Shown here one piece after another: positions 39,282 through 63,560 of a DNA stretch of 64,000 nt (the first letter of the stretch is position 1; each line of letters begins with the position of its first letter). The DNA is from Flaccisagitta enflata. Its lineage: Eukaryota. Made by a program: the position numbers and the translations under genes. The notes below the pieces were generated by a model, which saw only the letters and a program-made list of their open reading frames with translations, did not search any database and was not told the origin of the DNA. The stretch is taken from the NCBI GenBank assembly GCA_965153355.1, contig OZ231126.1:32302001-32366000 (forward strand). Reading direction: 5' to 3'.

Positions 39282-42137
39282 CTACACTTCCGGTTGGTTT
39301 TGGGCTCCTTTTTTCCACTTGTCGTAAGCTGCTTTGAACCCATTGACAGTTTTTTTTTCTCTCACGTCATCCGGTATTCCGTTCCATACATGGGCCGCGC
39401 GCACCATGAACGAGTTTTTTCTGATTTCCAGCCTGGCCTTCTTGATTTTTAGTACGTTTTTTCTCCTCGTTTCTCCCTCCTCGGTGATTTTGACATTCCG
39501 TCGCGTCGGCCTTTGCTCGTTGTTTTCAATGTCAAACCATTTCGCTTTATTGACATTGTTGAAACCATTCAAAGTCTTGAATGCTTCTATCGCATCCCCT
39601 CTTTCCCTTCTTTCCGTCAATGGTAGGAGGCCAACGTCCTTCAACTTTTCCTCGTAGGTTTTTCCCCTTGCGTCCGAGAGAAGTCGTATCATGCGTTGTT
39701 GCACTCTTTCAAGAGCATTTTTGTCCATCTCCATCCACGGATTCCACGCTGCCACCGCGAACTCGAGCTTTGGCCTAATGAATGTTTTGTAGATGGGGAC
39801 GAGATTGTTTTTTGTTCTATAATGGAAGGCCCTTTGCATTTGTCCCAGTGCAAAATTTGCCATTTTTGCTGCCACCGCGCATTGTTTGCTGGGCTTCATC
39901 GATGTGTCTACCCATACACCCAAGTCTTTTTCTTCCTCAGCCTCCGCGATCTTTATGCCGTTCATAACGTATTCGTATCTTGGGTTTTTCCTTCCTAAGT
40001 GTAAGATCTTACACTTTGCCGTGTTAAAGCTCATCGCCCATCTTTCAGCCCATTTGACTAGATTGTTAATGATTGTTTGCATCTTGTCCTTATCTTCCTC
40101 ATTCCGTATCTTGAGCGCGACTTTTGTGTCGTCTGCAAACATCCTTATTAACGCGTCAAGCACCTCTTTGCGGATGTCGTTTATGAAGATGTCGAAAAGT
40201 GTTCCACCCAACACTGATCCCTGCACGACACTGCTAAGGACTTCAATCCATTCCGAGTACTTCCCCTCAATCTGCACTCGCTGTTTTCTTCCTTGCAACC
40301 AATCCTTCAGCCATTCCTTCGCTTTCCCGACAATCCCCACGGCCTCCAATTTCACCATCAGTCTTTGGTGGCACACTCGGTCAAACGCCTTGGAGAAGTC
40401 AAGATATAATATATCGAATGACTCTCCCTCGTCCATCCATTTTGTCACTTCATCCATAAATTCGATGAGATTTGTTTGTGGCGACTTTTTTGCTCGAAAT
40501 CCGTGTTGTTCCTCACATAGCAGATTGTTTTTCTCAATGTGCTCCATAACTTGCTCTTTGACCACTCTCTCCATCATTTTCCCCACCACGTTTGTCAGAC
40601 TCACCGGTCTGTAATTGCCTGGGTCCGACTTCTTTCCTTTCAGTTTATAGATAGGAGTCACACTTGCCTCTCTCCAGTCGTCTGGGATTTTTCCTGAGTC
40701 AATTGATTTTTGGAAGAGGATTGTGAGTGGCGGTGTCAGTTCCTCTTTCAACTCTTTCAAAACTCGAGGCGTAATTCCGTCGGGTCCGCACACCGAATGT
40801 TCCTTCAGATTCTTTAGAATCCTTTTCACCGTCGTTTGGTCTATCTTGATTTCCGACAAATACTCCTCACCTCCATACTCCTCGGCTTGAGGAATATTTC
40901 CTCCGCTTAGCGTAAAGACCGATGCTAGATAGTTGTTTAGCACTTCCGCTTGTTCCCGCGGTTCCGTGATTTGTTCTCTGTCGCCGTCCTTTAGCGGTCC
41001 TATCTTTGTTCGCGTTTTTCGTGACCTATTAATAAAGGCGTAGTACATTTTTGAGTCTTCTTTTCTGCATTTTGCGACTTTTCTTTCATATGCATTTTTC
41101 TTATTTCTTATTTTCTTTTTTGTCTCCGTCACTTTCTTCTTATATTCATCCTTATCTCTTCTTGTTCCAGATTCCTTCCACGTTTTCCACGCCGCCTTCT
41201 TCTTCTCAATCGCCTTCCGTATCTCATGATCCATCCACGGAGGCTGCGTCGTTTCTCTTCTTGTCTTAAGTGGAATATGCTTTGCCATAAGATCCTTGAT
41301 ATATTTTTTTAAAGAAAGCCACATGCCATTCACATCGTGCCCTTCCCATTCACGCGACCAGTTAATTTCCGCGATCGATTCCCGCATTACTGCAAAGTTC
41401 GCCCTCCGGTAGTTGAAAGTCTGTCGTTTTTCGGTCTGCCGTTTCTCCCCGACATCAATTGTGAATGATATGAGGTCGTGGTCGCTCCTCCCGATCCTCC
41501 CTTCGGCCCTTACCTCTTTGATTAACTCTTCGCGATTACAGAGAACGAGATCCAGTATGTTACGGTTTTCGTGCGTCGATTCTTTTACATACTGCTCCAT
41601 GAATACCTCCATTGTTGCGTCAAAGAAATCCCTTCCTCGCAAACCCGATCTGCCGTTTTGCCACTCGATATCTGGAAAGTTGAAGTCTCCGATTGATATA
41701 TTCGTTCCATTCATTTCTCTCACCCACTTACACAGACTTTCATCGTTGGCCTTTTGAGAATTTGGCGACCTATACACGACATGGACAGAAACATCTTCAC
41801 ATCCCAGTCTCATTTTTATCGATGCGTATTGGTTAAAGTCGGTGTTACATTCCACCGCTGTCACATTCATTTTAATCTTCGCATAAATTATTATACCACC
41901 ACCTCTTCCCTTCTCTGTATCATTCCGATCATGTCTCGAAATTATTTCATAACCATCTACATGCAGAATTTCGCTTCCAATCCCGTCATGCGTCCATGTT
42001 TCCGTTATTGCCATTAAGTCCGGATCCGTTATTGCCATGATCGCCTTAAATTCATCCATCTTACTAACAATACTTTGTACATTTGCGAACGCCACTTTTA
42101 CACCGCTCTTCGCGTTTCCGCCCGCCATGCTAGCCAT
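39282..42137 (-). CDS. LINE ORF2: AP endonuclease + reverse transcriptase (CR1-type), 951 aa
   Basis: EN motifs ITETW, YRSPN, GDFNFP, LDLVL, SDHDLI; RT motifs NYRPVSLT, QHGF, LDFSKAFD, QGSVLG, FADDTK. Confidence 0.95.
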   Translation of the reverse strand: MASMAGGNAKSGVKVAFANVQSIVSKMDEFKAIMAITDPDLMAITETWTHDGIGSEILHVDGYEIISRHDRNDTEKGRGGGIIIYAKIKMNVTAVECNTDFNQYASIKMRLGCEDVSVHVVYRSPNSQKANDESLCKWVREMNGTNISIGDFNFPDIEWQNGRSGLRGRDFFDATMEVFMEQYVKESTHENRNILDLVLCNREELIKEVRAEGRIGRSDHDLISFTIDVGEKRQTEKRQTFNYRRANFAVMRESIAEINWSREWEGHDVNGMWLSLKKYIKDLMAKHIPLKTRRETTQPPWMDHEIRKAIEKKKAAWKTWKESGTRRDKDEYKKKVTETKKKIRNKKNAYERKVAKCRKEDSKMYYAFINRSRKTRTKIGPLKDGDREQITEPREQAEVLNNYLASVFTLSGGNIPQAEEYGGEEYLSEIKIDQTTVKRILKNLKEHSVCGPDGITPRVLKELKEELTPPLTILFQKSIDSGKIPDDWREASVTPIYKLKGKKSDPGNYRPVSLTNVVGKMMERVVKEQVMEHIEKNNLLCEEQHGFRAKKSPQTNLIEFMDEVTKWMDEGESFDILYLDFSKAFDRVCHQRLMVKLEAVGIVGKAKEWLKDWLQGRKQRVQIEGKYSEWIEVLSSVVQGSVLGGTLFDIFINDIRKEVLDALIRMFADDTKVALKIRNEEDKDKMQTIINNLVKWAERWAMSFNTAKCKILHLGRKNPRYEYVMNGIKIAEAEEEKDLGVWVDTSMKPSKQCAVAAKMANFALGQMQRAFHYRTKNNLVPIYKTFIRPKLEFAVAAWNPWMEMDKNALERVQQRMIRLLSDARGKTYEEKLKDVGLLPLTERRERGDAIEAFKTLNGFNNVNKAKWFDIENNEQRPTRRNVKITEEGETRRKNVLKIKKARLEIRKNSFMVRAAHVWNGIPDDVREKKTVNGFKAAYDKWKKGAQNQPEV

Positions 42138-43276
42138 CGCTCCCTTCCTCTCATCCCGGCCACCACATATCTTCCCCCTGTTCGCGTTCCGTTTTTTGCT
42201 TCCACCTCCGTCCGCTTCTTTGCTTCTTCTCTCATCTTATCTTCCTTTTTCTTAGCCTCGTCTCGTTCCTTATTTGTTAGATCGAGAGCAACAAACACGC
42301 TTTTCCAATCATGGTCTTTTCTCCCAAGGAATCGCGCCTTTTGCAAGAGTTTCTCCCGTGTCTCGTCGTCGCTCACTTTTACAACCAGCGGCCTTGGTTT
42401 TCCTCCGTCTTGCTTCTTCCCAGCCCTATACTTTGGCTCGACTTCTCCAACTATTTCAACCTCTATTGCTTCGGCCAAATCCCTTACAAACCTCTCGTCC
42501 TCCACGACCCTTTCTGCTGCGCTTTCTTTCTCTGACTCCTTCGCTCCATAGATGACAATGTTACAAGCTTTCTCCTCCCTCGTCCTCATCTCCACCGTCA
42601 GTTCTTCCTTGAATTCTTTCTTCGCCTACTCCATCCCAGTTTCAATTTCTTTTTCCATAACGACTATTTGCTCTTTTACCTGGTCTGTGCCATTCTTCAT
42701 CCTTTCGAGTTCGGCCTTGACTTGCTGCAGCTCGAGTTCTGCGGTGTTAGCACGTGCTTCCGCGGCGTTGGCTCTCTGTTCCGCGTCACTGATTTGTCCT
42801 TCGATTCTCTCCATTCTCTCGTTCATTCCCTGGTCCGAATTAGTCTCCAGTTTGGCGACCTTCTCAATGAGGACCTTGTTTTCCATGATGACCGTCCTCA
42901 GTTGTATCTTCACGTCCTTCATTTCGTCTTTGAACTGGGTTTTTGTTTCCTTCCCTTCGTCTTTTACCGCCTTGATCAAGTCGGCTTGCTGGGTGAAGGT
43001 CGTGTTTGAGAAGTCGATGAACCTTCGGCAAATCAGGCAGAAAAACGGAGATATACCGTGAATTTTTGTCATAGTCCCGCAGTTTTCCGCGAACTCGGGC
43101 GTCATTCCATCTACGCAGGCCGTGTGGTAGTGGAAGCCACACGCTCCACCACACGGAAGACTGCTGCCGTTTCCGCTAACACATTCCTGAGCACACTTGC
43201 CATACGGATTCTTCGTCGTTTGCTTCCGCAGTCGAGTGCTGCCGCTGCTCTTGTCGTCCTGCATTGTTAGGCTCAT
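42098..43276 (-). pseudogene. LINE ORF1 (PHD finger, coiled coil, RRM-like), ~392 codons, interrupted by in-frame TAG at 42626-42628
   Basis: The 216-aa and 165-aa ORFs are in the same frame; PHD-like C..CGGAC..HYHTAC..CLIC; NIVIYG..RPLVVK..DLT motifs typical of CR1/L2 ORF1. Confidence 0.85.
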
Positions 43277-43333
43277 CGGGAGAGTGATGTTGTTGGCTCA
43301 GTGTCGCCTTTTTTACCGCGGAGTCGTTTTACG

Positions 43334-48897: not shown

Positions 48898-50946
48898 CAG
48901 GTTTTCCTGCCTTTCTCCTGACATTTCGTGCTGCTATTTTTGGAACTTGTTTTGTCCTTTTGTCTCAAGGCTCGTTACTATCTTTGTCTCTCTACTCGTT
49001 ATTTCATACGTCGCTTTCTCTGTCTCAAGGCTCGAGAATAACTTTGTCTCTCTCCTCGTTACTTCATATGTCGCTTTCTCTGTCTCAAGCCTTGTCACTA
49101 TTTAGCTTTTCAGTCTTGGGCAGTGGCTCTAAGTCCAAAGGGCCGGTTTCATGTGTTTTTAGGGGGTTTGGGTGGAATTCTCTTATATCTGTAAGACTGT
49201 GTGTGCTTCTCCATTTCTTTATCAATCCATACATCCCCCATTTTAGGATCCTTAAGCCTGTATTTTAGGGCTTTCGACTTTTAGCCTCAAGAGTTGAAAT
49301 TTGGACTGAGTTTGAGATTTTGAGCCGAAATGTCCCAAATGTCTTGAATGTGGGATGTCAGTCTCGAGATAACATAAATATTTGCTCTACACAATGAAGC
49401 TTATTTTACTAAGGGCACGGACACCGCTCGGCTGGCCGGTTCCATTATTGTTTTTTTTTTACTTCTTTTCCTTCTTTTGCCCCGCGGCCAGAAGATGTCG
49501 CTGCTGCGACGTTGCAGCCATTTCTCTTTAGTTGATTTTACGGCCATTTGTCGTAAAAAAAAAGACGTTATCTAAAATCAAAAGAAAGAACCAATCAACT
49601 GAAATGACAAAATGACCAAAAAAGGTAAATTATGACCCCAAGGCATTTAGGTATAAGGAAAACAACAGAAAATACTGGAAATCAGTAGATATTCGAATGA
49701 AAATCCATACTGCCCACATTGGGAAAAAAGATCTCTTTAAAAACTGCATACTTATTTGACTACAGGTCGTCAAATGACACACATTCTTGAACAAAATACG
49801 TGGAAATTGCACCAGATCCTGGAAAACGATTGAGGGTGGCAAATAGCAATTCTCGAATGTGGGGCAATGTGAAAGTGTCAAACGTACCGATGGTAGAAGG
49901 AGGTGGTGATGGAGAAGAATAAGAAGGAGGAGGAGTAGGAGGAGGAGGAGGTGGAAGAGGCAAACGAGGAAGAAGATGTCAAACCTGCTGATGGATTTTC
50001 CGCTAAATAATAAAGTCTGTTGTTGCTCAATGGTTCAAAGTTATTCTAAGTCATTCTAAGATGAATGAAGTCAATTAGGTAAGTCAATCAGGCCAATTTA
50101 GTCAATTATGTCATTTTACATCATTTTTAAGTTATCTTTAGTCATCTTGATTCATTTGGAATCAATTTAAGTCACTTATGTCCCCCACGCGACTCATAGG
50201 TGTTGGCCATGTTAATTCTTGAATTTAGATGTTAGTATATACAAGAAAACATTCGTACAAAATGATGTTTTGACAATATCCTTAGTACTACAGATTATAG
50301 TGAGTCACTACCCCGCGTACCAATAAAAAAGACGCACTTTTGAATGGCTTATTGTAGCACCAAATTCAATAAAACCTAATGAAATTCTAGAACATTGGAA
50401 AGCCCTTTGAAAATACTTTCAGATGTTTTCTACCTTTTTTAGTCGCGTGCACGCGACTCTACAATGCGCTTTGTCTGCCCATCTGACCGACCGTTGGTCT
50501 GTTGGTCCTTCGGTCAAACTTTACTTTCTTCATTACTTTTAGTTATCTAAGTGTTTAGGTCAAAACAGTGTTGAAGTCATTCTTAGTCATTATAATTTAT
50601 TTTAATCATTTTATGTTTATCAGGAAAAAAAGTCCGAGTCAGACTTTTGACATGTTGGAAGAACAGGGTTTTCATTTTCTTTATCACCGAAAGTTTAGGG
50701 CTCTCCTAGGGGCGAATGGGCCCTCCAATGAAATTGATAGCGTAAGTAAATTTGATAATTCTCTTTTATTTGGCGCCAAGCAGAATGCTCTACGACAAAT
50801 ACTTTTTGCGCTATGATTTTTTAAAGATTTATTTACGAAAAATTCAAATGGAATTTTTTTAGATTTTTTTCGATTTTGTGTTTGATCAATGAAGGAGTGT
50901 ATTTATGTTTACTTGAGCATGCAAATACAAGAAAATATGTTTATGA

Positions 50947-51311
50947 AGTATGACATTGAAGTCATACGGACTGAAAGAAAGACGAAATTTCTTTGGAATT
51001 TCTTGGTTTACTCTTTAATTTTATCATTCATATAAAATTAACAATAAAATATATAAAACAACAACAAATAAAGGGCATTCTGTACGCTTAATGTTCTCTT
51101 ACCTGAAAGAAAGACGAAATTTCTTTGGAATTTCTTGGTTTACTGAAATTCCAAAGAAATTTTCGTTTATATATCACCCGCATTAGAAATCTGTAAAGTT
51201 TGTGGTGTAATACGTCAATTGCTAAATTAAATAGGGGTCCCTCATATTCTTATAAAGGACATTCTAATATTAGGGTGTTTCAAGTGGGTATAAGGAGTCC
51301 TATTCCATACT
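50947..51311 (-). repeat. 3' LTR
   Basis: AGTATG...CATACT termini; 3 mismatches vs the 5' LTR by eye. Confidence 0.95.
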
Positions 51312-51319
51312 TCCCCCCT
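51312..51319 (-). other. Polypurine tract
   Basis: Minus strand AGGGGGGA immediately before the 3' LTR. Confidence 0.75.
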
Positions 51320-51601
51320 GTTGACCAAAAAAAACCATTAGTGTGAACTAGGTTTTTTTTTCCTTTTTCAAATTCCCGGAATTTTAAAACAAAGTCGATC
51401 TCCTTTTACCCACCTAAAAATGAAAAACCTCAGAAATGCGGGCGTTTGCGTAACAATAACAATCGTTGAACGAACGGAAAATAACGGTCACGTTTTAACT
51501 TTATAAGTCACGACTTATAGGTTTGGATAGTAACTAAGACAGAAAAGGAGAATTCTAAATATCCAAATTATCAATCAACAACCCTTCCAACCAAAAGAAA
51601 C

Positions 51602-51608
51602 TATAAAA
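51602..51608 (+). promoter_or_regulatory. TATA box of antisense accessory gene 1
   Basis: TATAAAA ~80 nt upstream of GCCATC-ATG (51681). Confidence 0.55.
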
Positions 51609-51680
51609 GACTCGGCGTTTGTTAGGTTACCAAAATTCTTTTCTAATCATTTCTCCGCTTGATTACTGCGACAAGCCATC

Positions 51681-51841
51681 ATGAACGAATATCTCTTTCT
51701 CGCGTTGGCATCTCTTCTCTTCACCATGGGAATGGCTTCTGAATCAAATGAGCAAACCCTTGAGGATTACGTTAAAGATCCAGTTCCCTCGAATAAGTGT
51801 TTTCAAAAATTTGAGGGCTATTTGGAAAGCGTGGGCTACAG
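51681..51841 (+). CDS. Accessory gene 1, exon 1: signal peptide + start of ectodomain
   Basis: MNEYLFLALASLLFTMGMASESNEQ...SVGY; consensus donor AG|GTAAGT at 51842. Confidence 0.75.
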
Positions 51842-52007
51842 GTAAGTGGGGGGGGGAGAAAATTTTGAACACAAGATTAATGCAAAAGTTAGTTTAAGTT
51901 ATTATTACCTTCCTCGCCATGGTAACATATTAATTAGTTCAGGCTTGCATTAAAATCAAATACTTCTATTTCTAAAGGTTAACATGCCTGTCAATCATTG
52001 ATTTTAG

Positions 52008-52320
52008 GAAAGATGGGGATGCTTGTCAATTGATTGTTTATCGCACGGCTACTGGAAGAACCACTACTTCTCGATGTTTACCAGTATCAGAGAAGTATCT
52101 CAAAACTGAGTATAAAAAAAAAGTATTACAGAATACTGACGATGTCGAATATCTTCAATTTGGCACCATTGCCCTGGTGTTGCTCGATATTATTCTCACC
52201 ATATTCAAAATTTTTCAACAAAAGTTACAAACAACGCAAATCCTAGCAAATCAAGGCAATGCTCCCAATACTCCAACACCACTAAGACGAAACAGTCAGT
52301 ATGCCATACAAAACGTGTAA
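52008..52320 (+). CDS. Accessory gene 1, exon 2: rest of ectodomain, TM helix, cytoplasmic tail (spliced protein 157 aa, type I membrane protein)
   Basis: Acceptor ATTTTAG| at 52007, phase-compatible (AG|G = Arg), joins the 52030-52320 frame; TM FGTIALVLLDIILTIF. Confidence 0.75.
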
Positions 52321-53370
52321 ATCAGCATGCTCAGTCATTCGACAGTCGGGAAAAAAGGTAAAGTTCATACAGAGTAGTGAAACAATGGGAAATTAAGCAT
52401 GAGAGAAAAGGATAGAAATCAATAATTTGAAATTTGATTTCACACCGACCCCTTTTTCCATTTCCTTGATCAAAGTCCAAAGCTGGCAGCTGATTTAGCC
52501 AAATTTACTTCATTGGTCACTCATTTTATTCTAACTCCTGCCGTTTTCAATTCGTTTTTATTCTCAAGATTTTCCATTTGGGAACTAAATCATCAATCGA
52601 AAAAAAAAATATAACCATCATCGACTTCATGTCGTAAAAAAAAATATAGGAATTCCATAAAAAAAAAATACGACTACAGTACTGTCTGCGCATTTTCAAT
52701 CACTCCCAAATACCATCTGGTAAGGGCTTAGTGAAAATCCTTTATCCTTCAGACTAAAGAATTGATAATCTGGCACGTCCCTAGATAGCGCCGGGGGCAT
52801 ACTATCCTAAATAATACCGGTTTTTCAAGGGCTCACATTCACTGTCGAGACCTTACTTTAATTCGCCCCCCTGGGGTTAGCAAATTCTTTTTCTTTTCTT
52901 CTCTTTTTTCTTTTCCGTAATTTCTTTAGCCACTTATTTCCATGACTCTAAAATTAGACGCCCTCTCTGATCAACTTCGAGCTGATTGTCATTTGTTTCT
53001 TTGATTCATTTACTACCGCTCATTCACTCCCCCGTTCATACATCGTTCACTATTCATCAATCAGCTGTCAACATTCGTTCGTTTACCTGGCCAGGTTCAT
53101 TCATCACATTCATTCATCGTTCACATTTCACATTCATTGATCATCAGAGCGTCTCTAATATTAAACACTGATTGTTCTATATTCTCATTTTACAGGCTCG
53201 TATTTCTGTCTCAAAAGAAGCGGCTTTATATTACATCTTCTTTTTATTCATTTTCTTTTACTTCATTTCTTTTCTTTCTTTTAACAGCGAACGGCGGTTT
53301 CTTCTTTCTTTTTACATTTAGAGGGAATTTAATTTAAATTTGTTTCAAAAGTCATTATTCAAAATTCAAA

Positions 53371-53802
53371 ATGGCAAACTTTTCCCTTTACACGGGAAGC
53401 TCGGTTGATGATTACTTCTACGAAGAATCATCAACCACGCTTCCCAGTCCAACGGTTGCGTCCGTCCAACCGGACTCTGAGGCGGTGACATGGGGCTCGG
53501 TCGGAGGGGTCATCGGTGCCCTGATGTTGGTCTCAGGGGTCCTCGTAGCCCTCAGGCGCAAACTGGCAGCGGTGGACCGTTTCTTGGCCACCCTGCAGTC
53601 TGTCCCCAGGGCTGCGTTGGAACTTCTGAGGCCCCATCAGGCCCAAGACGCCTCCACCAGCCCCATGGCCACGCCAGCTGCCAGTGGCGTTCCGTTTAGG
53701 AACGCCACCGACAGTGCCAGAGCCCGAGTCCAAAATATTGAGATGCGAGGACTCGCCCCCCGCCATTGCGATGAGAATAATGCCCGTTCGCTGTGGGTTT
53801 AA
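53371..53802 (+). CDS. Accessory gene 2: 143-aa single-pass membrane protein (type III-like; FAST-like architecture)
   Basis: CAAA-ATG-G start, GC-rich ORF in AT-rich flanks, NFS sequon, Ser/Thr-rich N-terminus, Gly-rich TM, RRK, amphipathic helix; AATAAA at 53915. Confidence 0.75.
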   Translation: MANFSLYTGSSVDDYFYEESSTTLPSPTVASVQPDSEAVTWGSVGGVIGALMLVSGVLVALRRKLAAVDRFLATLQSVPRAALELLRPHQAQDASTSPMATPAASGVPFRNATDSARARVQNIEMRGLAPRHCDENNARSLWV

Positions 53803-53914
53803 ATTTTTCCCCACTTAAGATTTTCTTCCCCACTTTCCCCTTAAAGGGTTTTTAATTCAAAATTTTTCTAATTATTTCATTCTTTCATTTCTTGATTTTA
53901 TCCAAAATTTTGCT

Positions 53915-53920
53915 AATAAA
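53915..53920 (+). terminator. Polyadenylation signal for the antisense cassette
   Basis: AATAAA followed by an A-rich tract that ends 7 nt before the pol stop codon. Confidence 0.55.
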
Positions 53921-53948
53921 AAAAATACAAAAAAAAAAAAATACTGTC

Positions 53949-56900
53949 TCAAATCCATTCCAACGCATCGAGGCCGATTCCACCGTAGTGGCTCTTCGTC
54001 GTCAGCCCCGCATTTAGGACGAAATTGGCGTCAATCGACGGCGATAATTGGGCACCACGCGCCCTTCTTCTTGTCATTGGTGGCGAATTCGAGGCCTCGT
54101 TCTTTGTGGCCATTTCTTCCATGCGTTCACACAATCTTAGTAAGTCCTCCTTCGTTTGGTTTCTGGTGATTAGTAGCAAATCACCCGGCAGAATACAGAT
54201 ATCATCTGTCAAGATACTTTTGCATCTAAAAGTATTGGTACCGACGCGGTCCATGACCTCAAAGGCATTTTTTTGTAATTTGAATGCCAACTTTTTTTGA
54301 ATGCCTTTTGCGAACGAAGTCCTTTTTAGTAAGCAAAGATCTCCACTTTTAAGCCTACGGCCATAATCAGTTGGCGAACTGTGATCTTTTTTCTTTAGAA
54401 ACGACTGTACGTTGTAAAGAAGAGACTCTTCCGCCGCCCTTTTCGCCAAAGAAATGGTCTCCTTTGCGGATTTGCTTCCTTTTCCATCTTCCTTTGACGC
54501 AATGTTCATCAACGGCGCCTTTAAGGTAGGTGAAAAGTGTAATTCCCGAGGCGAAATCGCCCCTTCTTCCGTCATAGGGCCTAGCCCACTATGCACCGAG
54601 TTATTGTAACAAATGATTGATTCATTTACCAACTTTGAGAATGGCGTTTTTGGATTAGACGAGTGATACTTCATTATTAAACGACTAATAGTTGATATTA
54701 GTCTTTCAGCCTTTGTTTGGCACCTGCTAATGTTTGCCATTCCATGGGTAATAGTCACACCACTATCCATTAAAAACTTCCTGGTAGCACTGTGCTTTGA
54801 TAATAATGCGTTATCACATACTATAGATTTAGGCAATCCATTCCACGCCTTTCTCATTTCCATCACGCCTTCTAGTACATAGTCATCATTAGTACCATTG
54901 GTTGGCGTACCAAAAGCGTAACGGCTGAAACTGTCACAAAATATTAAGACATATTTTGGCAAGCCTGACGCTGTTTTAAACATTGTATATGGCCCCGCAA
55001 AGTCCATAACTACCAATTCTCCGCTTTGACATGCAATTTGTTCTCCATCATCCTCTTTTCTTGCTCTGTTTGTTATGTGGTTATTCAAAGCGCAACTTGC
55101 GCACCGTGAGATGTATGTGTTCACCTTGAATCTCAGCCTGAACGCGTACCACTTTTTTGCGATTGCCGTAAATGTCTTTCTTTGACCGATGTGTGACAGA
55201 CCAGATGGGCAGTTCACATCAAACTCGTGGGTTTTAGCAATCAGTCTGTCCATTTGTGAATCACCAACCACCAAAAGAGGATCGATTGAACCGTTTCTAT
55301 GTGCCCATAGGCGAAATAAGATACCCTGCTCATTCAGCCTAAAGCATAGCTTATGTCGTAAGAATGTCTGTATATCCTTAAGCAGGCTCAAAGCATTAAT
55401 TTTTCGGGGAATCTCCTCCTCGCCCCTCAAATACTGAGCACACTTCCTAATTGTTTCATCTTCCTGCATTTCCTTTGCCTTTTCCAGATTGTCATCGTCA
55501 TACACGGGCAGGGTCACGTCTCTAAAGATGTCCTCCACTTTTTCGTCATCCGCATCATTCCACCCTTCTCCTATCTCCTCATCTGTCAATCCGAACGAAC
55601 AGATGTTCATCCTCCCAAGCTCCTTCTTTTCCTCCTCCTCTTCCTCCTTGACACTTCGACGGCGAGTTTCCTTCGACGCGACGTCGTCGTCGACGTCGTC
55701 GTCGCCCTCAATGACGTCACCATCGTCCTCAACGACGCTTTCATGCAAGTCGGTGACGAATCCCTCATCACTGACGTCATCAATTTCATCACCTGCTCTC
55801 AAGGAATCCATCACTCTATCATAGGTGAATTCTCTTACACACTCACGTGTTGTTTTTGTCGATTTGTCTTTGTCTGTCTCCACCTCCATTGTCCCTTCTA
55901 TTTGGCTGTCAACCGCGTCCTTGCGGGAATCATAGTCGTCATGAATTGGCTTTTCTTTTTTCTCGACCGAAACTGCCTTCGCTAATTTCTGCTTTCTATT
56001 CCGAACGAAGAAATCTTCCATTCTTTTGCTTTTTGGTGCTGTGAAGAGTTTTTTCCAACTTATTGGATTTCCATCTCCATTTATCAAACGGCCTTCCATG
56101 AACCTTGGATAGGTCCCTACCGGTGATAACTTATTTCCTTGAGGGTCAAATGTCCTTTCCTGCCTGCTAAAGATATCTGCCATGTTCAATTTCCCATCCA
56201 CATGAATGACCTTGAAATCAAACCGTTGCAAAGAAAGGATTTTTCTTGCCAAATCCATTGGCACTCTATCAATACTTGCCCAATCTCTGCAAGTCTCGCT
56301 GTCACTTACAACAAAAAATTGCCTGCCAGAAAGTAGGAAAAAATACTTATGCGTCATTTGCCAAAGGGCGACCAGTTCCTTCAACCAAATTGGGTAACAA
56401 CGCCAATTTTCGGGTATGCATGAGCTCCATACTCCCACCAAATGCAATTCCTTTCTTCCCTGCTCTCCTGATTGCTTGTGCTTCAGTGGCAACATCATCT
56501 GTGTCAGTATCCCACTCAGGCTGCTAGATGAGGCGTCACAAAAACAAAAGATTGTGTCCTCCACATCAGCACTAGGTGTCCTTAATACACAGCATTCTGG
56601 GTCTAATAAATGCTCCTTTATGTCCTGCAATGCCTTATGATGAATCGCTGACGGCCTGAAACGAACACCCGGTTTGTTTAGCTCTCTCAGAGGTGCTGCC
56701 AATTCTGACAGTCTGACTGCCATTCTGTCAAACCAGACAAAAAATGCAAGCATTGCATTTAATTTAGCTTTTGTTTCTGGGAAAGCCAATTTCTTGATTT
56801 TATCAATCTTTTCTGATGACAATGACAGCCTCTCCTCTCCCACTAAGTGACCTAGAATTCTGGCCTCATCTCTGAAGAAAATACATTTCTTTGGGTTCAT

Positions 56901-59894
56901 CAGCAGATTGTAGTAACTTGTTGTGGCCAAAAAGTCAGGCAAATCCTTTTCTATATGTTCTTCCTTGGTCATTGAACAGCATGAAACATCATCCTGAAAA
57001 GGATATGATCTAGGGCAATTTTCATAGCATTTTGATGAGGTAAATTGCCCCAAGTTGGCCGATTGTACATTTCCCATCAATAATCTGAGAGACTTGTAAA
57101 CTTTGCCTAAAGCATAGATACCAAATAGCTGTTGTGTCTGCTCGTCTGTCTTGACCTGATGAAAAAATTCTACGAAGTCAAAGTTTGAGAATACTTTATA
57201 TTGTGACAGCTCTCTTCTGAATGCCTCACAATTTGGCAAAGGGAATGAACTCTTTTTCAGTGATTTGTTGAGAGATTTTTGGTCTACTACCATTCGACTT
57301 TTGTACCTAATTTTGTTCTCACCACTATACCATCTTTCTTCCAAAATGATAAAAGCATTGGATGCATAGATAGAAGCTGATTCTCTGGAATTATCCACCT
57401 CTTTAATAACACCCATGTTGATAAGGTCTTCAATATGCTTTTTCAAATACTTTCTCTTACTGTCTGGACATCTTCTCTGCTTATCCTTGACTGGCACCAC
57501 TCCTGGTTGAACCTCAATATGCACCAATGGGATATTCTGAATGCCAGCTCTGAACTGATCTTTCCTGTCAACATTGTAAAAAATATCCTTGAAACATACT
57601 AAAAGCTCCTTCAACTTGCTCAAATATGGCTCCTCTACTCCTGAAAAATCAAAATTTGCCAGAAATATTTCATCTGATGGCCAAAATTCTGATTTTGCTC
57701 TTTTGTCCTTTTCAAGGTCAAAGTTTGCTTTGACACCCAGCAGATGGAGATTAGGACTTTGTCGCTTCGCCTCTAAATCACAGTAAATTCCTGTGTCCTG
57801 ACACCTTCTCAACAGATCATTACTAAGTCTGCCTTTGTTCACTATATCAGAGAGAAGAACGGGGCCTGTGACGTCATGCAGACCGTTCCGTTTTTCGCCT
57901 GGCTGCTGCCCGCAGCTGCTTTTCATTCCAGCCTCTGCTGCTGCTTCGCTGGGTTTGTGTGACGCTGCCGCTTCTCCAACCACAACCTCCTCCACACGTA
58001 CATCGTCTCGCCCTACGCCGTCTCTACAGACAGCTGACAACTCTCTTCTGTCTGTCCGTCCACTTTTGACTCCGTCCGTCACTCCGCATATCAATCCTAT
58101 CATTTCTTTTTCTAGCCTTTCGCGTTTTTCTTTCTCAGCGCCTTGAGTCCATTTTCGTTCTCTCCTTACTATTTTGTCCTCTGAGGCCTTCTGTCTCCGT
58201 TCCAAATTCGTCTCACCCTCTGTCCGAGTTTTTTTTCTCTCATCATATGATTCTCCGATGGACGTAATATCACTCGCCTCTCTTTCGCGCTTGCTGCCTT
58301 TTGTGTCTGCTTCTACTCTGTCCTTCCTTATTTTGTCCGCACCTTCAAGTGAGCCTTCTATCACATTTTTGCGAGGCTGAATATCAAGCACTTCACACAC
58401 TATTCTCTTTGTGTAACTTTCATCTGTTTTGTTCCTTTTATCATTAGCGATGACATTGACGATGCCGTTGTCACTATCACTGATGACATTGCCGATTTTG
58501 ATGTTACTATTTGCGATGACATTGATGTGTTTGTCGACTAACTTGTCATTGTTGTCAGTGTTGTTTTTGATGATTGTTCTTTTGTTGTCAGTGTTGTTCT
58601 CGACTATTTTGCTCTTGGACCCAGTGTTGTTTTTGACGATTGTTTTTTTGTTGTTTGTGTTGATATTCTCGTATTCATTTTTTTCCTTTACTGTCGCGCG
58701 TTCAACTGTTTGATTTTTGCTTTTTTCATTCATTCCTTTCATCACCACATCTATTTTGCAGACATCAACTTGAAACATCTTCAAGCTACGCGTCTCTTGT
58801 TCGTCTTTGGTGATACCGTGCTTCACAATCTCACCTATCCTCCAACCTGCCTTAATCGTCATTTCCTCGCCGGTAAGATTAGTGACTGGAATCATGAAAT
58901 TTACAGTACCACTCTCATACGTGACCGAGGGTATGTAGACTGAATGTATCTCTTCATCATAGAACGAAAGAAATGAAAATTTACTGTCAGTCCTAAAATT
59001 TGGCTCTATTTTGCACTCGACCATCGTGATTGATGTTGGATCAAGAGTGACAGTCCGTCTGTTTGACATCCAGTAATTTCTCTCAACTTTTGGCCAATTC
59101 CTCTCCATTAAACTACGACTTTCCCACTCCTTCTTTCTTTCCTCCAGGCTATCAACTGCTTCATTCAACGACCTCGACGTCAAAATCCTTTCATCTTTGA
59201 TATACATCAATTCATCCCTCGTGCTCAAGTTGAGGCCCAGGCTCCTATCGCGAAGCAGGTCAGAACCTATAATTGATGTTTCCACATCGCACACATAGAA
59301 TGAACACCTCACACTTTGTGGGTAAAAATGTAGTGTAACATCCACCATATCTGTCACCTCCGCCCCTACTTGGCCTGTAAAACCTAGTAGTTGTACTCCT
59401 GGACCCTTCCTTTTTCTGATGTTTTTTACCAAAGCTGAGGCTATGACACTACACTCTGCTCCAGTGTCAATGAAGAATTCGCCTTTGACCGCGCCATCTT
59501 GACCATTATCACTCCCATCCTCACTCTCTTTGTCCCATGGTGATACCATACATGCCACATAGAATTTACTTCCTTTCATAAAACCCGTTGAACATCCATT
59601 TTCTTCCTCTTCTTCCTCAAATTCCTTTTTATTCACGTTAGCACAATGCAATGACTGTCTGTCACCTTCTCTGTCACTTTCACTGTCATTTTCACTGTCA
59701 CTTTCACTGTCACCTTCTCTGTCACCTTCTCTGCCACTCCTATCGTCACCTTCTTTTTCTTGCCCATTTAAAACATGTCCCACTGAATCTATGTTCAACT
59801 CATATTCATTCGGAGATTTTGATATTGAAAGACATTGTAATTTATCACCGATACTTTTCTCATCCTCTTTATGTGATAATGGTTGCTGTAATTG
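53949..59894 (-). CDS. pol: pol: aspartic protease, dUTPase-like region, RT, RNase H, integrase (open from the gag stop)
   Basis: FIDTGAECSVI..IIGSDLL; RT RMVVDQKSLN, FQDD (56988-56999), ILGH; RH CDAS..KELVAL..SDS; IN H..H..CxxC, MDFAGP, CDN, KAER. Confidence 0.95.
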   Translation of the reverse strand, partial: QLQQPLSHKEDEKSIGDKLQCLSISKSPNEYELNIDSVGHVLNGQEKEGDDRSGREGDREGDSESDSENDSESDREGDRQSLHCANVNKKEFEEEEEENGCSTGFMKGSKFYVACMVSPWDKESEDGSDNGQDGAVKGEFFIDTGAECSVIASALVKNIRKRKGPGVQLLGFTGQVGAEVTDMVDVTLHFYPQSVRCSFYVCDVETSIIGSDLLRDRSLGLNLSTRDELMYIKDERILTSRSLNEAVDSLEERKKEWESRSLMERNWPKVERNYWMSNRRTVTLDPTSITMVECKIEPNFRTDSKFSFLSFYDEEIHSVYIPSVTYESGTVNFMIPVTNLTGEEMTIKAGWRIGEIVKHGITKDEQETRSLKMFQVDVCKIDVVMKGMNEKSKNQTVERATVKEKNEYENINTNNKKTIVKNNTGSKSKIVENNTDNKRTIIKNNTDNNDKLVDKHINVIANSNIKIGNVISDSDNGIVNVIANDKRNKTDESYTKRIVCEVLDIQPRKNVIEGSLEGADKIRKDRVEADTKGSKREREASDITSIGESYDERKKTRTEGETNLERRQKASEDKIVRRERKWTQGAEKEKRERLEKEMIGLICGVTDGVKSGRTDRRELSAVCRDGVGRDDVRVEEVVVGEAAASHKPSEAAAEAGMKSSCGQQPGEKRNGLHDVTGPVLLSDIVNKGRLSNDLLRRCQDTGIYCDLEAKRQSPNLHLLGVKANFDLEKDKRAKSEFWPSDEIFLANFDFSGVEEPYLSKLKELLVCFKDIFYNVDRKDQFRAGIQNIPLVHIEVQPGVVPVKDKQRRCPDSKRKYLKKHIEDLINMGVIKEVDNSRESASIYASNAFIILEERWYSGENKIRYKSRMVVDQKSLNKSLKKSSFPLPNCEAFRRELSQYKVFSNFDFVEFFHQVKTDEQTQQLFGIYALGKVYKSLRLLMGNVQSANLGQFTSSKCYENCPRSYPFQDDVSCCSMTKEEHIEKDLPDFLATTSYYNLLMNPKKCIFFRDEARILGHLVGEERLSLSSEKIDKIKKLAFPETKAKLNAMLAFFVWFDRMAVRLSELAAPLRELNKPGVRFRPSAIHHKALQDIKEHLLDPECCVLRTPSADVEDTIFCFCDASSSSLSGILTQMMLPLKHKQSGEQGRKELHLVGVWSSCIPENWRCYPIWLKELVALWQMTHKYFFLLSGRQFFVVSDSETCRDWASIDRVPMDLARKILSLQRFDFKVIHVDGKLNMADIFSRQERTFDPQGNKLSPVGTYPRFMEGRLINGDGNPISWKKLFTAPKSKRMEDFFVRNRKQKLAKAVSVEKKEKPIHDDYDSRKDAVDSQIEGTMEVETDKDKSTKTTRECVREFTYDRVMDSLRAGDEIDDVSDEGFVTDLHESVVEDDGDVIEGDDDVDDDVASKETRRRSVKEEEEEEKKELGRMNICSFGLTDEEIGEGWNDADDEKVEDIFRDVTLPVYDDDNLEKAKEMQEDETIRKCAQYLRGEEEIPRKINALSLLKDIQTFLRHKLCFRLNEQGILFRLWAHRNGSIDPLLVVGDSQMDRLIAKTHEFDVNCPSGLSHIGQRKTFTAIAKKWYAFRLRFKVNTYISRCASCALNNHITNRARKEDDGEQIACQSGELVVMDFAGPYTMFKTASGLPKYVLIFCDSFSRYAFGTPTNGTNDDYVLEGVMEMRKAWNGLPKSIVCDNALLSKHSATRKFLMDSGVTITHGMANISRCQTKAERLISTISRLIMKYHSSNPKTPFSKLVNESIICYNNSVHSGLGPMTEEGAISPRELHFSPTLKAPLMNIASKEDGKGSKSAKETISLAKRAAEESLLYNVQSFLKKKDHSSPTDYGRRLKSGDLCLLKRTSFAKGIQKKLAFKLQKNAFEVMDRVGTNTFRCKSILTDDICILPGDLLLITRNQTKEDLLRLCERMEEMATKNEASNSPPMTRRRARGAQLSPSIDANFVLNAGLTTKSHYGGIGLDALEWI

Positions 59895-62180
59895 TCATGC
59901 CTGCAATCTGTCTTTGTCTCCGTTTCTGTCAGCGTCTCTGGCCAAGATGATGGCCTCAGATTTATCTTTTGGTCTGTCCTCACACTCTATGGCGATATGA
60001 CATTCTTTCCTCAAATCCACGCCACAACACGGACAAAATGACCGACAAAATTCATATGATCCATTCCATACATGTGTCTTACTTAAACAAGCGGCGCATC
60101 CAGATAATTGCATCTTTTTCATCTTCATGGCCAGGAGGATTCCTTCCGGCGTCATCCCCGATTCTGACGCTGACGAGATCGATGCTCCAATTTCGTTGAC
60201 GTGCGCCTTCCATGATGATTGCGTCCCTCTCGCCTGCGCGCTCGACGCTCCCGACGACGCGTTGGCGCCTCCACGTGCGCCACTTCCGGCGTAACTACCT
60301 CGTGGTAAACTCTGACTCCTAGGCGGCGCATACTTGCTCCAGTTTCCTCCTCCGCCGTTTCCATTCGACCATCCTCTACCGGCGCCACTATTTGACCATC
60401 CTCTACCGGCGCCGCTCGACCATCCTCTACCTGCGGCGCCGCTCGTCCATCCTCTTCCGGCTGGTGCGCTTCCTCCTCGTGGCGCCGGTGCTCCTCTCGT
60501 TTGCGTATTGTGGCCCCTTCCTCTATGTGAAGCTGACGAACTTTGCTGAGAACCTGTGTTGGTTAAAGCCGAAACGTTGCGTTGATGGTTATTTTTGTTA
60601 TCCTTGCCCTCCAAGAATGCTTTATCGAGGCTTATCTGAGCCTCTATGTGTTGAGCGTGATTGGCAAGCCGTCTCAATGTTCTTTGCCCATCCTGATATT
60701 GTGCGTTTGACACTGTGTGTGCTAATGTTCTATTGTATAATCCTGCCAAAAATGGTTGGATGTAGTCGTTCTCTTGTCTGCCAATGATGAATATCAAATC
60801 AACATAATCTGTGAAATACTCTGAAACCGACTCATTGCTTTGTTGTTTACGGTTGTGAAGTCTCCCCAACGCAATCGAGTCTAAATTAGGATAGAGTTGA
60901 TGCTCAAATTCCTTAATGAATGCCATAAAGCTAGAAAACGTTGCCTCGCGCTTGAAGATAGGCTGAAACGTTTTATAGAAGACATGAGCTTTCAAGGCGA
61001 ATATCCCCAAATGAGTGAACATAGGGCAAGCGCCAAAATAGCAAGACAACTGATCAACTAGCTTACGTCTTTGTTCCAAGTACAATAATGCATCCATATT
61101 TTCCTTAAAATCAACATTCACAATTTTCGCCGCCCTCACTACACTATCAGCGTCAGCTTCACCACCACATAGAGTTCCTCCTCTAGGAAACATGAGAACT
61201 ACCCCTGGTTTTTCAAACAACCCTGGATATTGCGGCGTTGAGGGTGGGTTGGGAGATGGGGTGGAAATTGTGTGTGTATTGGCTTGTACATCGTACACCG
61301 ACCTATTCGATGACGCTGGTCTCAAAATTCCATTTACTATCCTTTGACCGGATGCTACTCTTGTCTGACCTGATGTTCCAGTCGTTTGACCTGATGTTCC
61401 AGTCGTTTGACCTGATGCCTCAGCGCCTTGCTTGGACGAATTGGACGAATGAGTCAAGACGGGTGAGAAAGAGAAATGTACTTTCTTCGTTGCTCCAACG
61501 CCGCCTATTGCTCCTGCCTCCGTCGCTCCCGCGTCGTCGTTATCTGCCGGGAACAATCTGTTGCCATCTGCAACGATACTTGCATTATCAATGGGCCATG
61601 TTGTGCGATCCCCGGTGTGGTCCCACCCATCATCATCATCCTCACCATCACCATCATCATCATCTTCATTCTCACTCGAAGACTTTGATTCTGTGTTAAG
61701 TGATACCAATAAGTCGTCTACATCTTTGAAAATCCTTTTCATCTCATTCTCATTCCCGCCTGTAATAAATGCTAGATAGGCGTCATTCAAATTGCGCATC
61801 AGGTGTAACATGACTTGTTTAGTTGCCTGAAGACTTCTAATCCTTTCTTGATTTGACTCGATGGTCTGGGCCTGTCTCTCTACTGTATTTTGTAGCGCAT
61901 CAATCGCTTCTGATTGTTTGCCTTCAGTATCTGCAGACCGTATACATCGTACTAGGTTATTCCTCTGTTGTAATAACTCACGAGTGAACTGATCAACTGG
62001 CATTTTCGTTTTTGATTTACATCCTTTTATCGACCCACCTTTGTGCTGTGATGGAGGCCTCCAGCATTTCGGACACCAAATGGTGGCTGAGACACCAGGT
62101 CTCAGTTGTGATATTCGAGCTGACAAGTCTGCTATCTCTTGAAGAAGCTCATTTGTAGTTACCTCCTCTGGGGTTGACAT
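59895..62180 (-). CDS. gag: gag, 761 aa
   Basis: N-terminal CX2CX6HX7C and coiled coil; capsid MHR-like KQQSNESVSEY; RG-rich GRGWS repeats; C-terminal Cys/His zinc motifs; located after the PBS. Confidence 0.9.
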   Translation of the reverse strand: MSTPEEVTTNELLQEIADLSARISQLRPGVSATIWCPKCWRPPSQHKGGSIKGCKSKTKMPVDQFTRELLQQRNNLVRCIRSADTEGKQSEAIDALQNTVERQAQTIESNQERIRSLQATKQVMLHLMRNLNDAYLAFITGGNENEMKRIFKDVDDLLVSLNTESKSSSENEDDDDGDGEDDDDGWDHTGDRTTWPIDNASIVADGNRLFPADNDDAGATEAGAIGGVGATKKVHFSFSPVLTHSSNSSKQGAEASGQTTGTSGQTTGTSGQTRVASGQRIVNGILRPASSNRSVYDVQANTHTISTPSPNPPSTPQYPGLFEKPGVVLMFPRGGTLCGGEADADSVVRAAKIVNVDFKENMDALLYLEQRRKLVDQLSCYFGACPMFTHLGIFALKAHVFYKTFQPIFKREATFSSFMAFIKEFEHQLYPNLDSIALGRLHNRKQQSNESVSEYFTDYVDLIFIIGRQENDYIQPFLAGLYNRTLAHTVSNAQYQDGQRTLRRLANHAQHIEAQISLDKAFLEGKDNKNNHQRNVSALTNTGSQQSSSASHRGRGHNTQTRGAPAPRGGSAPAGRGWTSGAAGRGWSSGAGRGWSNSGAGRGWSNGNGGGGNWSKYAPPRSQSLPRGSYAGSGARGGANASSGASSAQARGTQSSWKAHVNEIGASISSASESGMTPEGILLAMKMKKMQLSGCAACLSKTHVWNGSYEFCRSFCPCCGVDLRKECHIAIECEDRPKDKSEAIILARDADRNGDKDRLQA

Positions 62181-62398
62181 CTTGGAAAAAAGTCGAAGAT
62201 CCTACCTCGGCTTTTACACGGACGGCGAGAGCCGCCGTTAATGTTTCTGTCTGATCGAAACGAAGATCGATACCGCCTCGCGATGATCGATGAACTTTGG
62301 GAGAGACCCGCGTTGAATCCCTTTTCTTAGAAACGCCGCCGGGGCTCCTGCCCAACTGACCGAATAGCCACTTGTGGCGCGCAGATTTTACTAGACCA

Positions 62399-62409
62399 CC
62401 GTGCCTCCA
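62399..62409 (-). other. Primer-binding site, probably tRNA-Thr
   Basis: Minus strand TGGAGGCACGG directly after the 5' LTR; complementary to ...CCGUGCCUCCA, as recalled for tRNA-Thr 3' ends. Confidence 0.65.
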
Positions 62410-62774
62410 AGTATGACATTGAAGTCATACGGACTGAAAGAAAGACGAAATTTCTTTGGAATTTCTTGGTTTACTCTTTAATTTTATCATTCATATAAAA
62501 TTAACAATAAAATATATAAAACAACAACAAATAAAGGGCATTCTGTACGCTTAATGTTCTCTTACCTGAAAGAAAGACGAAATTTCTTTGGAATTTCTTG
62601 GTTTACTGAAATTCCAAAGAAATTTTCGTTTATATATCACCCGCATTAGAAATCTGTAAAGTTTGTGGTGTATTACGTCAATTGCTAAATTAAATAGGGG
62701 TCCCTCATATTCTTATAAAGGACATTCTAATAGTAGGGTGTTTCAAGTGGGTATAAGGAGTCCCATTCCATACT
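62410..62774 (-). repeat. 5' LTR
   Basis: Matches 50947-51311. Confidence 0.95.
62605..62636 (-). promoter_or_regulatory. LTR core promoter: TATA + Inr
   Basis: Minus strand TATATAAA (62636-62629) lies 29 nt upstream of the A of TCAGT (62607). Confidence 0.65.
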
Positions 62775-63150
62775 ATGAGCACAGCTGCTCATCTGTGAGG
62801 GCATTTTTGAGCATTTTAGCTCATTTAGCTCACTAAGCTCAGTCTGTTTTTTCCGATTTCAAATATGATAAATGAATAAATATTTTCAAACTTGATTAAG
62901 CAAGCAAATAAAAAAACATGTCAGTGAGCAGAGCTGCTCATCTGTGAGGGCGTTTTCAAGTATTCTAGCTCATTTAGCTCATTCAGCTTGCGCTTTTTCT
63001 CTGATTTTAAACAGGATAAATAAATTAATGTTTTGACTTAAGCATGCAAATACAAGAGAGCATGTCAGTGAGCAAAGCTGGTTGTCTGGTTGAATCATTT
63101 TGATCATTTTAGCTCATCTAGCTCATTTGGCTCAGTCCTATTTTTCTCTG
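62775..63150. repeat. ~144-bp tandem repeat that hosts the LTR insertion
   Basis: TGAGCA.AGCTG at ~62776, ~62926 and ~63069; the unit's AGCATGCAAATACAAGA segment also lies left of the element (~50916). Confidence 0.75.
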
Positions 63151-63560
63151 ATTTTCAGTGCAGTCAATACATACAATTGCTTTTGATTTGATCTAACAAA
63201 ATTTCAGTGACTGAAGATGGTGAAAAGTGACCAATGCGTACGACTTTTTTCCTCACGGCGACAGCCGCCATTACTGGTATTTTGTCACTCAGTCAATTTG
63301 TCAATTTAGTCGTTTAAGTCATTTATCATCATTTTATGTCTTTTGAAGTTATTTCTAGTCATCATAAGTCATTTTAAGTCAATTTGAGTCATCCTAAGTC
63401 ATTCATATCCCGTAGGCGACTTATAGGTGTTGGCCTTGTTTGTTTGGAAATAGCATTAGTTTAAATCAAAACTTTGTCTTTTTATTTTCACAATCCTCAT
63501 ATAAAAAGCAAAATAGAGCTTCTCTTTGGAAGGCTCTAGCTCCTAAACCGTTTGAGATAC

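Follow-up and report, generated by a model that had tools for sequence, protein, structure and literature searches.

What, if anything, does a retrotransposon gain from two genes that occupy the position of env and yet lie on the strand opposite to its own? This question is raised by a complete Ty3/gypsy-type element at positions 50947-62774, minus strand, of a 64-kb stretch of contig OZ231126.1 (32,302,001 to 32,366,000; hereafter the window, meaning the whole stretch of 64,000 nucleotides (nt) that was analyzed). The element retains gag, pol, the primer-binding site (PBS), the polypurine tract (PPT) and both long terminal repeats (LTRs), and in place of env, in the interval from pol to the 3' LTR, it has a cassette of two antisense genes, each predicted to encode a single-pass membrane protein. 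Here, we argue that both open reading frames (ORFs) are conserved and that the cassette is carried widely in the element's family, and we consider how it may have been acquired and what it may do. The reading that we prefer, whose chances we judge to be about even, is that the cassette encodes accessory membrane proteins, made from integrated copies, which an active lineage has kept because they are helpful. Its main rival is that the two genes are neutral passengers.

Two Antisense Genes in the Position of env

The cassette extends from 51312 to 53948 (2637 nt) and contains no env, the longest sense ORF in this interval being 77 amino acids (aa) long. On the plus strand, which is antisense to the element, lie gene 1 and gene 2; the TATA box, GT-AG intron and AATAAA signal that the first-pass annotation of this DNA had reported were found as described, and each protein has a single hydrophobic peak. 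The TATAAA motif (51602-51607, plus strand), a putative promoter, stands about 75 nt upstream of the ATG of gene 1. The first predicted exon (51681-51841, plus strand, with its ATG at 51681) encodes a hydrophobic, signal-like N-terminus and one Cys. It is followed by a predicted GT-AG intron of 166 nt (51842-52007, plus strand; GTAAGT...TTTTAG) and by a second exon (52008-52320, plus strand) that encodes two Cys, a transmembrane (TM) segment and the tail RRNSQYAIQ, and that terminates with the stop codon at 52318-52320. The predicted spliced product has 157 aa, a signal peptide and one hydrophobic peak at about residues 105-123; it would be a type-I-like membrane protein with some 85 aa and three Cys outside, one TM segment and a short tail. 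Pfam families for the gene 1 exons were sought and none was found at E<=1. Three A-runs on the 3' side of gene 1 (52597-52670, plus strand) differ in length between copies of the element, with indels at 52600, 52636 and 52659.

The reality of the gene 1 intron is supported indirectly, by three features of the sequences. First, exon 2 has no Met at all. Second, among the three homologues of exon 2 (61-98% identity) the protein P0041, at 61%, keeps both Cys, the TM segment and RRNSQYAIQ, and its similarity begins exactly at the first residue after the predicted acceptor, the two sequences being unlike upstream. Third, copies of the element carry indels (+GG and +T) inside the intron. Three database proteins, P0039, P0103 and P0105, were considered as spliced forms of gene 1 and rejected, as they read through the acceptor or differ upstream of it and are genomic. 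The cassette also contains AATAAA motifs on the sense strand (at 53248, 52562 and 52530, minus strand), which could end the genomic RNA early.

Gene 2 (53371-53802, plus strand) is intronless. Its 143-aa product has a single hydrophobic peak (residues 43-61), with RRK after it. It would be a signal-less single-pass protein: a short acidic N-terminus that carries a glycosylation sequon precedes the TM segment, and behind this come a basic helix next to the membrane and a tail that is disordered but contains conserved motifs. The AlphaFold2 model is poor (mean pLDDT 53) and has helices at 41-86 and 113-127 and disorder elsewhere. A prediction of the complex of gene 2 with gene 1 exon 2 scored 0.00 with controls not run, and so speaks neither for nor against binding.

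Conservation of the Coding Sequences

A search of 5.8 billion proteins yielded 17 homologues of gene 2, of 108-144 aa and at 51-99% identity; they are encoded on short contigs, and the gaps in their alignment are whole codons only. A profile search of 1.84 billion representatives gave 12 clusters at E<=0.001, six of them at E<=1e-10 and three at 1e-30. Members that are as little as 28-40% identical to gene 2 keep the N-terminal N-x-S/T sequon, a Trp/Gly-rich start of the TM segment (W...G(G)), RR after it and a stretch rich in Pro; also kept are the motifs RN-x-[TS]-D and IEMR, a Cys and a C-terminus of aromatic and aliphatic residues. The length is 135-143 aa in all 48 listed members of the five closer clusters and 130-147 aa in 23 of the 28 listed members of the distant ones, counts of intact proteins that are biased by the nature of the database, which consists of called ORFs within a length band. 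Since gene 2 and, through its 61% homologue, gene 1 both have diverged relatives that keep their length, we take both ORFs to be conserved coding sequences, beyond what chance would produce, and the conservation that the first-pass annotation had put up for examination is upheld to this extent. Two of the gene 2 homologues, P0022 and P0023, resemble reciprocal mosaics of the window-type and 75%-type subfamilies with a switch at about residue 78; this may reflect either recombination between subfamilies or chimeric metagenome assembly, and we have set them aside as evidence. For another homologue, P0026, the Pfam rows are sub-threshold and at chance level only.

Variation among copies of the element itself, taken at >=95% identity, can also be compared with the coding potential of the cassette. 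All 12 of the listed indels lie in its non-coding parts (the upstream region, 5' untranslated regions, intron and A-runs), and none of these 12 touches gag-pol or the 906 coding nt of the cassette. Under an even spread of indels along the cassette, their absence from the coding sequence would by our arithmetic have P ~0.006, a figure that makes the case look stronger than it is because many of them are in homopolymers. Substitutions are a small sample, 40 of 234 being shown. Those in pol number 22 (19 synonymous and 3 non-synonymous), and the two in gene 1 (51770 C>T and 52317 G>T) are both synonymous. The transitions between copies are strand-biased: counted on the plus strand, a DNA run of organism A (X5) has 44 C>T and 57 T>C versus 9 G>A and 8 A>G, and a marine metagenome (X1) has 41 C>T and 49 T>C versus 12 G>A and 11 A>G. 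This amounts to an excess of G/A exchange on the sense strand of the element and comes partly from purine-rich third codon positions.

The Cassette as Probable Cargo of the Family

The cassette was found, at least in part, in 20 of the 24 listed sequencing runs, which come from 11 studies and are mostly marine metagenomes together with organism A. Four runs were compared with positions 50400-62405 of the window, and depth was expressed as summed word depth, which is not equivalent to copy number; no listed contig bridges the joint between pol and the cassette. In X5, possibly the sample from which the window itself derives, the seven cassette bins have depths of 2481-8489, compared with 1068-4266 for pol and 2185-7243 for gag; the corresponding values in X1, also a DNA run, are 43-75 (one cassette bin being 0), 20-122 and 24-50. 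A cassette depth on a par with that of gag and pol in two DNA runs makes a one-off capture unlikely, and the first-pass annotation, which had named a one-off captured host fragment as the outcome that would overturn it, is on this point sustained. In a run that comprises 1.18 billion letters, single contigs of 400-900 nt reach a depth of 1500-2500, which indicates a very high abundance of the element.

These data bear on the trivial explanation that the 2.6-kb segment is misassembled, or is some other transposon nested here in a single copy. Shifts of composition within the segment would fit such an origin, to which we give next to no credence: in independent runs its contigs have a depth of the same order as those of the rest of the element, it has no terminal repeats of its own except the A-runs and a 10-nt repeat around gene 2 (see below), and it contains no transposon protein domains.

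They also bear on the main rival, in which host genes were recently captured and amplified in a burst, the ORFs being intact as the copies are young and the database homologues being host genes. We consider this possible though rather unlikely. Against it stand the position of all the listed indels outside coding sequence, albeit many of them in homopolymer runs, and the synonymous character of both gene 1 variants shown. Moreover, a segment that adds 2.6 kb of length and has AATAAA motifs on the sense strand should be costly to the element, yet its depth is like that of gag and pol; and two unrelated membrane-protein genes, one with a TATA box and an intron, exceed what one accidental capture would bring.

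Origin of Gene 2

The two genes differ in composition, the GC content of gene 2 being 0.595 (0.65 at third codon positions) versus 0.39 in gene 1 and 0.35 in the spacer. Gene 2 belongs to a 728-nt unit (53216-53943) that is bounded by a perfect 10-nt direct repeat, a candidate target duplication. The upstream copy, CTGTCTCAAA, is at 53206-53215 (plus strand) and the downstream copy at 53944-53953 (plus strand), where it spans the stop codon of pol (plus-strand TCA, 53949-53951). The unit ends with an AATAAA at 53915 and an A-rich tail in which 25 of 29 positions are A (53915-53943, plus strand). In shuffled sequences a repeat of at least 10 nt arises with P ~0.03, in what is a post hoc test. 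The repeat TACTGTCT, of 8 nt (52680 and 53942), was likewise weighed as the target duplication and was set aside for the longer one. Gene 2 has, then, the features expected of a retrocopy, as it is intronless, has AATAAA followed by an A-tail and is flanked by a direct repeat. It is likely, to judge from these features, that gene 2 is a copy of a processed cellular mRNA, made by a long interspersed nuclear element (LINE), that landed at the stop codon of pol; at least part of the cassette would in consequence be captured host material. Gene 1, having a TATA box and an intron, is by the same reasoning not a processed copy.

An apparently intact non-LTR retrotransposon is present at 39282-43297 (minus strand), about 10 kb from the element. 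Its ORF of 984 aa (39282-42236) has endonuclease and reverse transcriptase (RT) domains, and the two ORFs that lie upstream, 175 and 223 aa long and with no Pfam match, may be its ORF1.

Evidence against Maintenance

A number of observations, drawn from the origin, the relatives and the expression of the cassette, weigh against the reading that we prefer. The 10-nt repeat and the A-tail of gene 2 are still intact, and this argues for a capture that is recent when set against the divergence of 28-85% among members of the gene 2 family. If so, the diverged homologues may be host genes or independent captures, and the status of gene 2 as a long-standing gene of the element, which its description as part of a maintained module had implied, is not borne out: it carries the marks of a fairly recent capture of mRNA. 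Alignments of gene 2 and pol gave no confirmed relative locus in viral_contigs, metagenome_contigs or genome_contigs, and among the contigs listed none of equal size encode diverged gene 2 homologues and pol relatives. The gene 2 substitutions shown include 3 that are non-synonymous (E>D, A>V and N>T) versus 2 that are synonymous. In four gene 2 clusters the variable sites that fall in residues 41-86, the TM segment and juxtamembrane helix, number 1 of 13, 7 of 20, 1 of 18 and 5 of 12, or 14 of 63 in total versus about 20 expected by our arithmetic, a weak avoidance. The protein matched no known domain, with no Pfam match at E<=0.01 for gene 2 and none at E<=1 for its homologue P0034, and its look-alikes in the ESM Atlas are generic small single-pass proteins, all scoring <0.9. 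To these must be added the bias in the counts of intact gene 2 proteins, already mentioned.

Expression provides the remaining points of this kind. Among 12.16 million records of poly(A) RNA of organism A, some 6% of the run, there are 2 partial reads, and the whole element appears silent in this sample. A metatranscriptome (X11) yielded contigs of the cassette at a depth of 3-5, which carry no strand. They cover 51368-51662, a contig that starts upstream of the TATA box; 51664-51986, one that retains 145 nt of the intron and is hence unspliced; 52178-52440; 52687-52853; and 52919-53262. There are none over the coding sequence of gene 2, an absence that also counts against the preferred reading, and none over gag or pol. 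At this depth carry-over of DNA into the library is a possible source of the contigs; plain carry-over fits their pattern poorly, since in the DNA runs gag has a depth of the order of the cassette's. It is possible, therefore, that part of the cassette is transcribed. Neither spliced gene 1 RNA nor a spliced database protein was found among the poly(A) reads, the X11 contigs and the database homologues, and the plus-strand spliced transcription that the annotated gene structure predicts was thus not seen in the X11 contigs or in the fraction of the poly(A) run covered.

Much of this evidence favors neutral passengers. The retrocopy marks of gene 2 (its A-tail, 10-nt repeat, contrasting GC content and lack of an intron), an LTR divergence of just 3 in 365 nt, poly(A) RNA without expression, the 3 non-synonymous versus 2 synonymous changes in gene 2 among those shown, and the failure of equal-sized contigs to tie the diverged homologues to pol relatives among those listed would all be accommodated by a recent capture of no consequence to the element.

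The unspliced contigs suggest another possibility, that the plus-strand RNA rather than its translation product is the active agent. Such an RNA could pair with the genomic RNA and feed small-RNA silencing or self-limitation, the ORFs being incidental. The RNA-library contigs from 51368 to 53262, extending upstream of the TATA box, are what this would produce, and a role of this sort is discussed for the plant antisense ORFs and for micropia in the portion of PMC7264820 available to us. Nonetheless, we think it improbable, because the conservation of the protein, in which gaps are in frame and motifs persist, extends to relatives at 28% identity, and because the covered stretch lies outside gag and pol.

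The proposal of a maintained accessory module, as made in the first-pass annotation, is supported in part. The cassette is no one-off and its coding sequences are spared by the listed indels; its expression was not shown and one of its two genes appears to have been captured recently.

Possible Roles of the Cassette Proteins

If the cassette is nevertheless a helpful accessory module, as we prefer to think, a young and complete element without env would carry both antisense genes as the standard cargo of its family, and internal promoters independent of the LTRs would drive both proteins from integrated copies. The persistence of an intron and poly(A) signals within a retroelement would be explained by their orientation, the genomic RNA containing only their complements, which are presumably neither spliced nor cleaved; intron and signals would thus be copied faithfully at every retrotransposition. 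Our best guess is that the proteins alter membrane traffic or signaling in the host cell, rather than replace Env.

A replacement of Env is the obvious alternative, the small membrane proteins acting in fusion or in particle release and so permitting a cell-to-cell spread that is independent of Env. The cassette occupies the env position; gene 2 has a suggestive topology, acidic before the TM segment and RRK after it, with an N-terminal sequon and a helix at 41-86; and, in the text available of PMC5408684, such roles are proposed for the small TM ORF3s of rotifer elements. However, neither Pfam nor the Atlas gave a match to any fusion protein, gene 2 lacks both an N-terminal Gly that could take myristate and a hydrophobic patch outside, the genes are on the wrong strand for expression from the element's own RNA, and gene 2 likely originates from a host mRNA. 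We regard the substitution of Env as very improbable.

The FAST proteins of reoviruses lack a signal peptide; they have a short N-terminus outside and a single TM segment, together with a basic cluster, a helix and a tail. Gene 2 has a layout of this type (about 40 aa before the TM segment at 43-61, then RRK, with the helix at 41-86). The acylation and patch features of FAST proteins were not found in it: residue 2 is Ala, the vicinity of the TM segment lacks Cys, and the stretch outside the membrane is acidic with many Ser and Thr. The analogy of the cassette to a FAST-like Env replacement would be one of position and layout. In its most elaborate form, this idea has a zooplankton gypsy lineage recruit host membrane proteins as an antisense Env substitute that passes capsids between somatic and germ cells, gene 2 serving in fusion or release in the manner of a FAST protein and gene 1 being its glycoprotein partner; this we consider a highly unlikely scenario.

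The Element and Its Insertion Site

The youth and completeness of the element, which the first-pass annotation had emphasized, are well supported. Its LTRs, of 365 nt each (3' LTR at 50947-51311, with termini AGTATG...CATACT; 5' LTR at 62410-62774; both on the minus strand), differ by 3 mismatches over 365 nt (alignment columns 281, 341 and 372), and gag and pol are open apart from one TGA. The target-site duplication is ATGA (left copy 50943-50946, right copy 62775-62778). The PPT, AGGGGGGA (51312-51319, minus strand), adjoins the 3' LTR, and the PBS (62390-62409, minus strand; TGGAGGCACGG..., starting with TGG) adjoins the 5' LTR. These direct LTRs with a short target duplication, the PBS and PPT beside them and the order protease (PR), RT, RNase H (RH) and integrase (IN) in pol are the features of Metaviridae. 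Loose ends of reads at 50946 run on into the sequence after 62778 (12 in X1 and 2 in X11), which means that unoccupied sites exist and that the borders of the insertion are exact. No tRNA gene matching the PBS is present in the 64-kb window, blastn and tblastx detected no further copies of the element in the rest of it, and there are no Rfam families over 50500-63200.

The insertion lies within a satellite (flanks 50400-50946 and 62776-63134), of which 2.5 copies of a 149-nt unit are present to the right. The summed depth of its left flank is 1.3 million in X5 and 117,000 in X1, and reads with the unoccupied site are seen. Positions 1-50000 of the window are host DNA that is dense in microsatellites and short tandem repeats, where many long spurious ORFs consist of runs of a single residue or dipeptide.

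The gag gene (59895-62180, minus strand, 761 aa) ends with a TGA in the reading frame of pol, and pol, from its first ATG, occupies 53949-59579 (minus strand), its frame being open upstream of this ATG back to the gag stop. Together gag (62180..59895) and pol (..53949) make up a frame of 2743 codons that is interrupted once, by a TGA at 59895-59897 in the context GCA TGA CAA. Such a frame implies that Gag-Pol would be made by read-through of the stop codon rather than by frameshifting. Pfam domains recognized in pol, several with scores under the Pfam cut-offs, are RVP (34-116), RVT_1 (760-911), RT_RNaseH (1005-1120), Integrase_H2C2 (1461-1501) and rve (1520-1612). At 1876 aa, pol is long for its kind. 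An Asn/Lys-rich insert of low complexity (about 290-560) separates protease from RT and an acidic insert (about 1200-1340) separates RNase H from integrase, and both overlap tandem repeats in the DNA.

The closest relative of known structure is the Gag-Pol of Ty3 (E 1e-23), followed by Ty3 RT, a caulimovirus polyprotein, a foamy virus Pol and gammaretroviral RTs, and in the ESM Atlas the RT-RH part matched generic gypsy clusters. Among proteins of 1031-3283 aa, to which the search for pol relatives extended, eight are 34-42% identical and all the others about 23%; the columns conserved between the element and these eight include the acidic residues of protease, RT and integrase. By these identities, pol belongs to a deep, sparsely sampled and isolated lineage, and the suggestion made at the outset that the element may represent an undescribed lineage has, as far as pol is concerned, gained support.

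Relation to Known Systems

In the maize element Grande (gene23), rice RIRE2, Silene Retand (TRP28) and Phaseolus PvRetro13, ORFs in antisense have been described in the stretch that separates pol from the 3' LTR (PMC7264820; PMC11963269); PMC8220671 mentions antisense ORFs in its introduction only. These elements are like the one studied here in having one or more opposite-strand ORFs in this position and a long region between pol and the LTR with short tandem repeats. The plant ORFs occur in most copies of a family, and Grande has an internal promoter of its own. In contrast, the plant proteins either are nuclear or have a predicted DNA-binding role (gene23, TRP28, SMC-like), whereas those of the present element are predicted small single-pass membrane proteins in a marine plankton host, and gene 1 has a predicted intron, a word not found in PMC11963269. 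A Pfam search revealed no homology of the antisense proteins to TRP28 or gene23. Outside the plants, the gypsy element Boty of the fungi Botrytis cinerea and Sclerotinia has an antisense ORF at the same position, although a single one, the comparison being with its description in PMC7264820. Hence the arrangement itself, to the extent that these passages describe it, cannot be held to be of a new kind, since antisense ORFs after pol were already recorded in plants and a fungus (PMC7264820).

Retroviruses provide a second comparison. HBZ of HTLV-1 and ASP of HIV-1 are antisense genes in the 3' part of the provirus, and for ASP, a membrane protein, two TM segments are predicted (PMC10186651). 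Their transcription starts from the 3' LTR, and both share sequence with sense genes, that of ASP being env, within which it lies. The genes described here, in contrast, have a non-overlapping segment of their own, with the TATA box 290 nt inside the element, and domain searches detected no sequence similarity to the retroviral antisense proteins. The bdelloid rotifer elements Vesta and Juno have a small ORF3 with a TM segment and Cys after pol, and capture ORFs in a modular fashion (PMC5408684). They are animal LTR elements and resemble ours in having a small TM ORF instead of a full env; they differ from it in that ORF3 is on the sense strand and is expressed from spliced element RNA, whereas here there are two antisense genes.

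The insect errantiviruses (gypsy, 17.6 and ZAM) share the PR-RT-RH-IN order with the element. They also make a 4-bp target duplication and have LTR termini of the form AGT...ACT, as does the element. Unlike it, they have a sense env after pol, and the pol of the element is only about 23% identical to that of any named gypsy element. Finally, gene 2 resembles retrocopies made by LINEs in being intronless, in its AATAAA with A-tail and 10-nt repeat and in the presence of an intact LINE in the window; it differs from them in that the target lies inside a retrotransposon which then amplified together with the gene. Within the terms searched and the collection of papers covered, no description turned up of an animal gypsy-type element that carries genes for membrane proteins in antisense.

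Implications

Antisense cargo in LTR retrotransposons has so far been a matter of plants and one fungus, and after 25 years no function has been established for it. What differs here is the host, a member of the marine plankton and probably an animal, and the nature of the cargo, two membrane proteins instead of nuclear ones. The locus also suggests a plausible route by which such genes could be acquired, a processed mRNA copy landing in antisense orientation at the stop codon of pol. With its young and abundant copies, the family constitutes a natural data set for asking whether cargo is under selection by the element that carries it. Should the two genes be passengers, they would still document the amplification of genes by a retrotransposon to a very high copy number; if, on the other hand, it is true that their products aid movement from cell to cell, they would represent a route to infectivity that is independent of Env.

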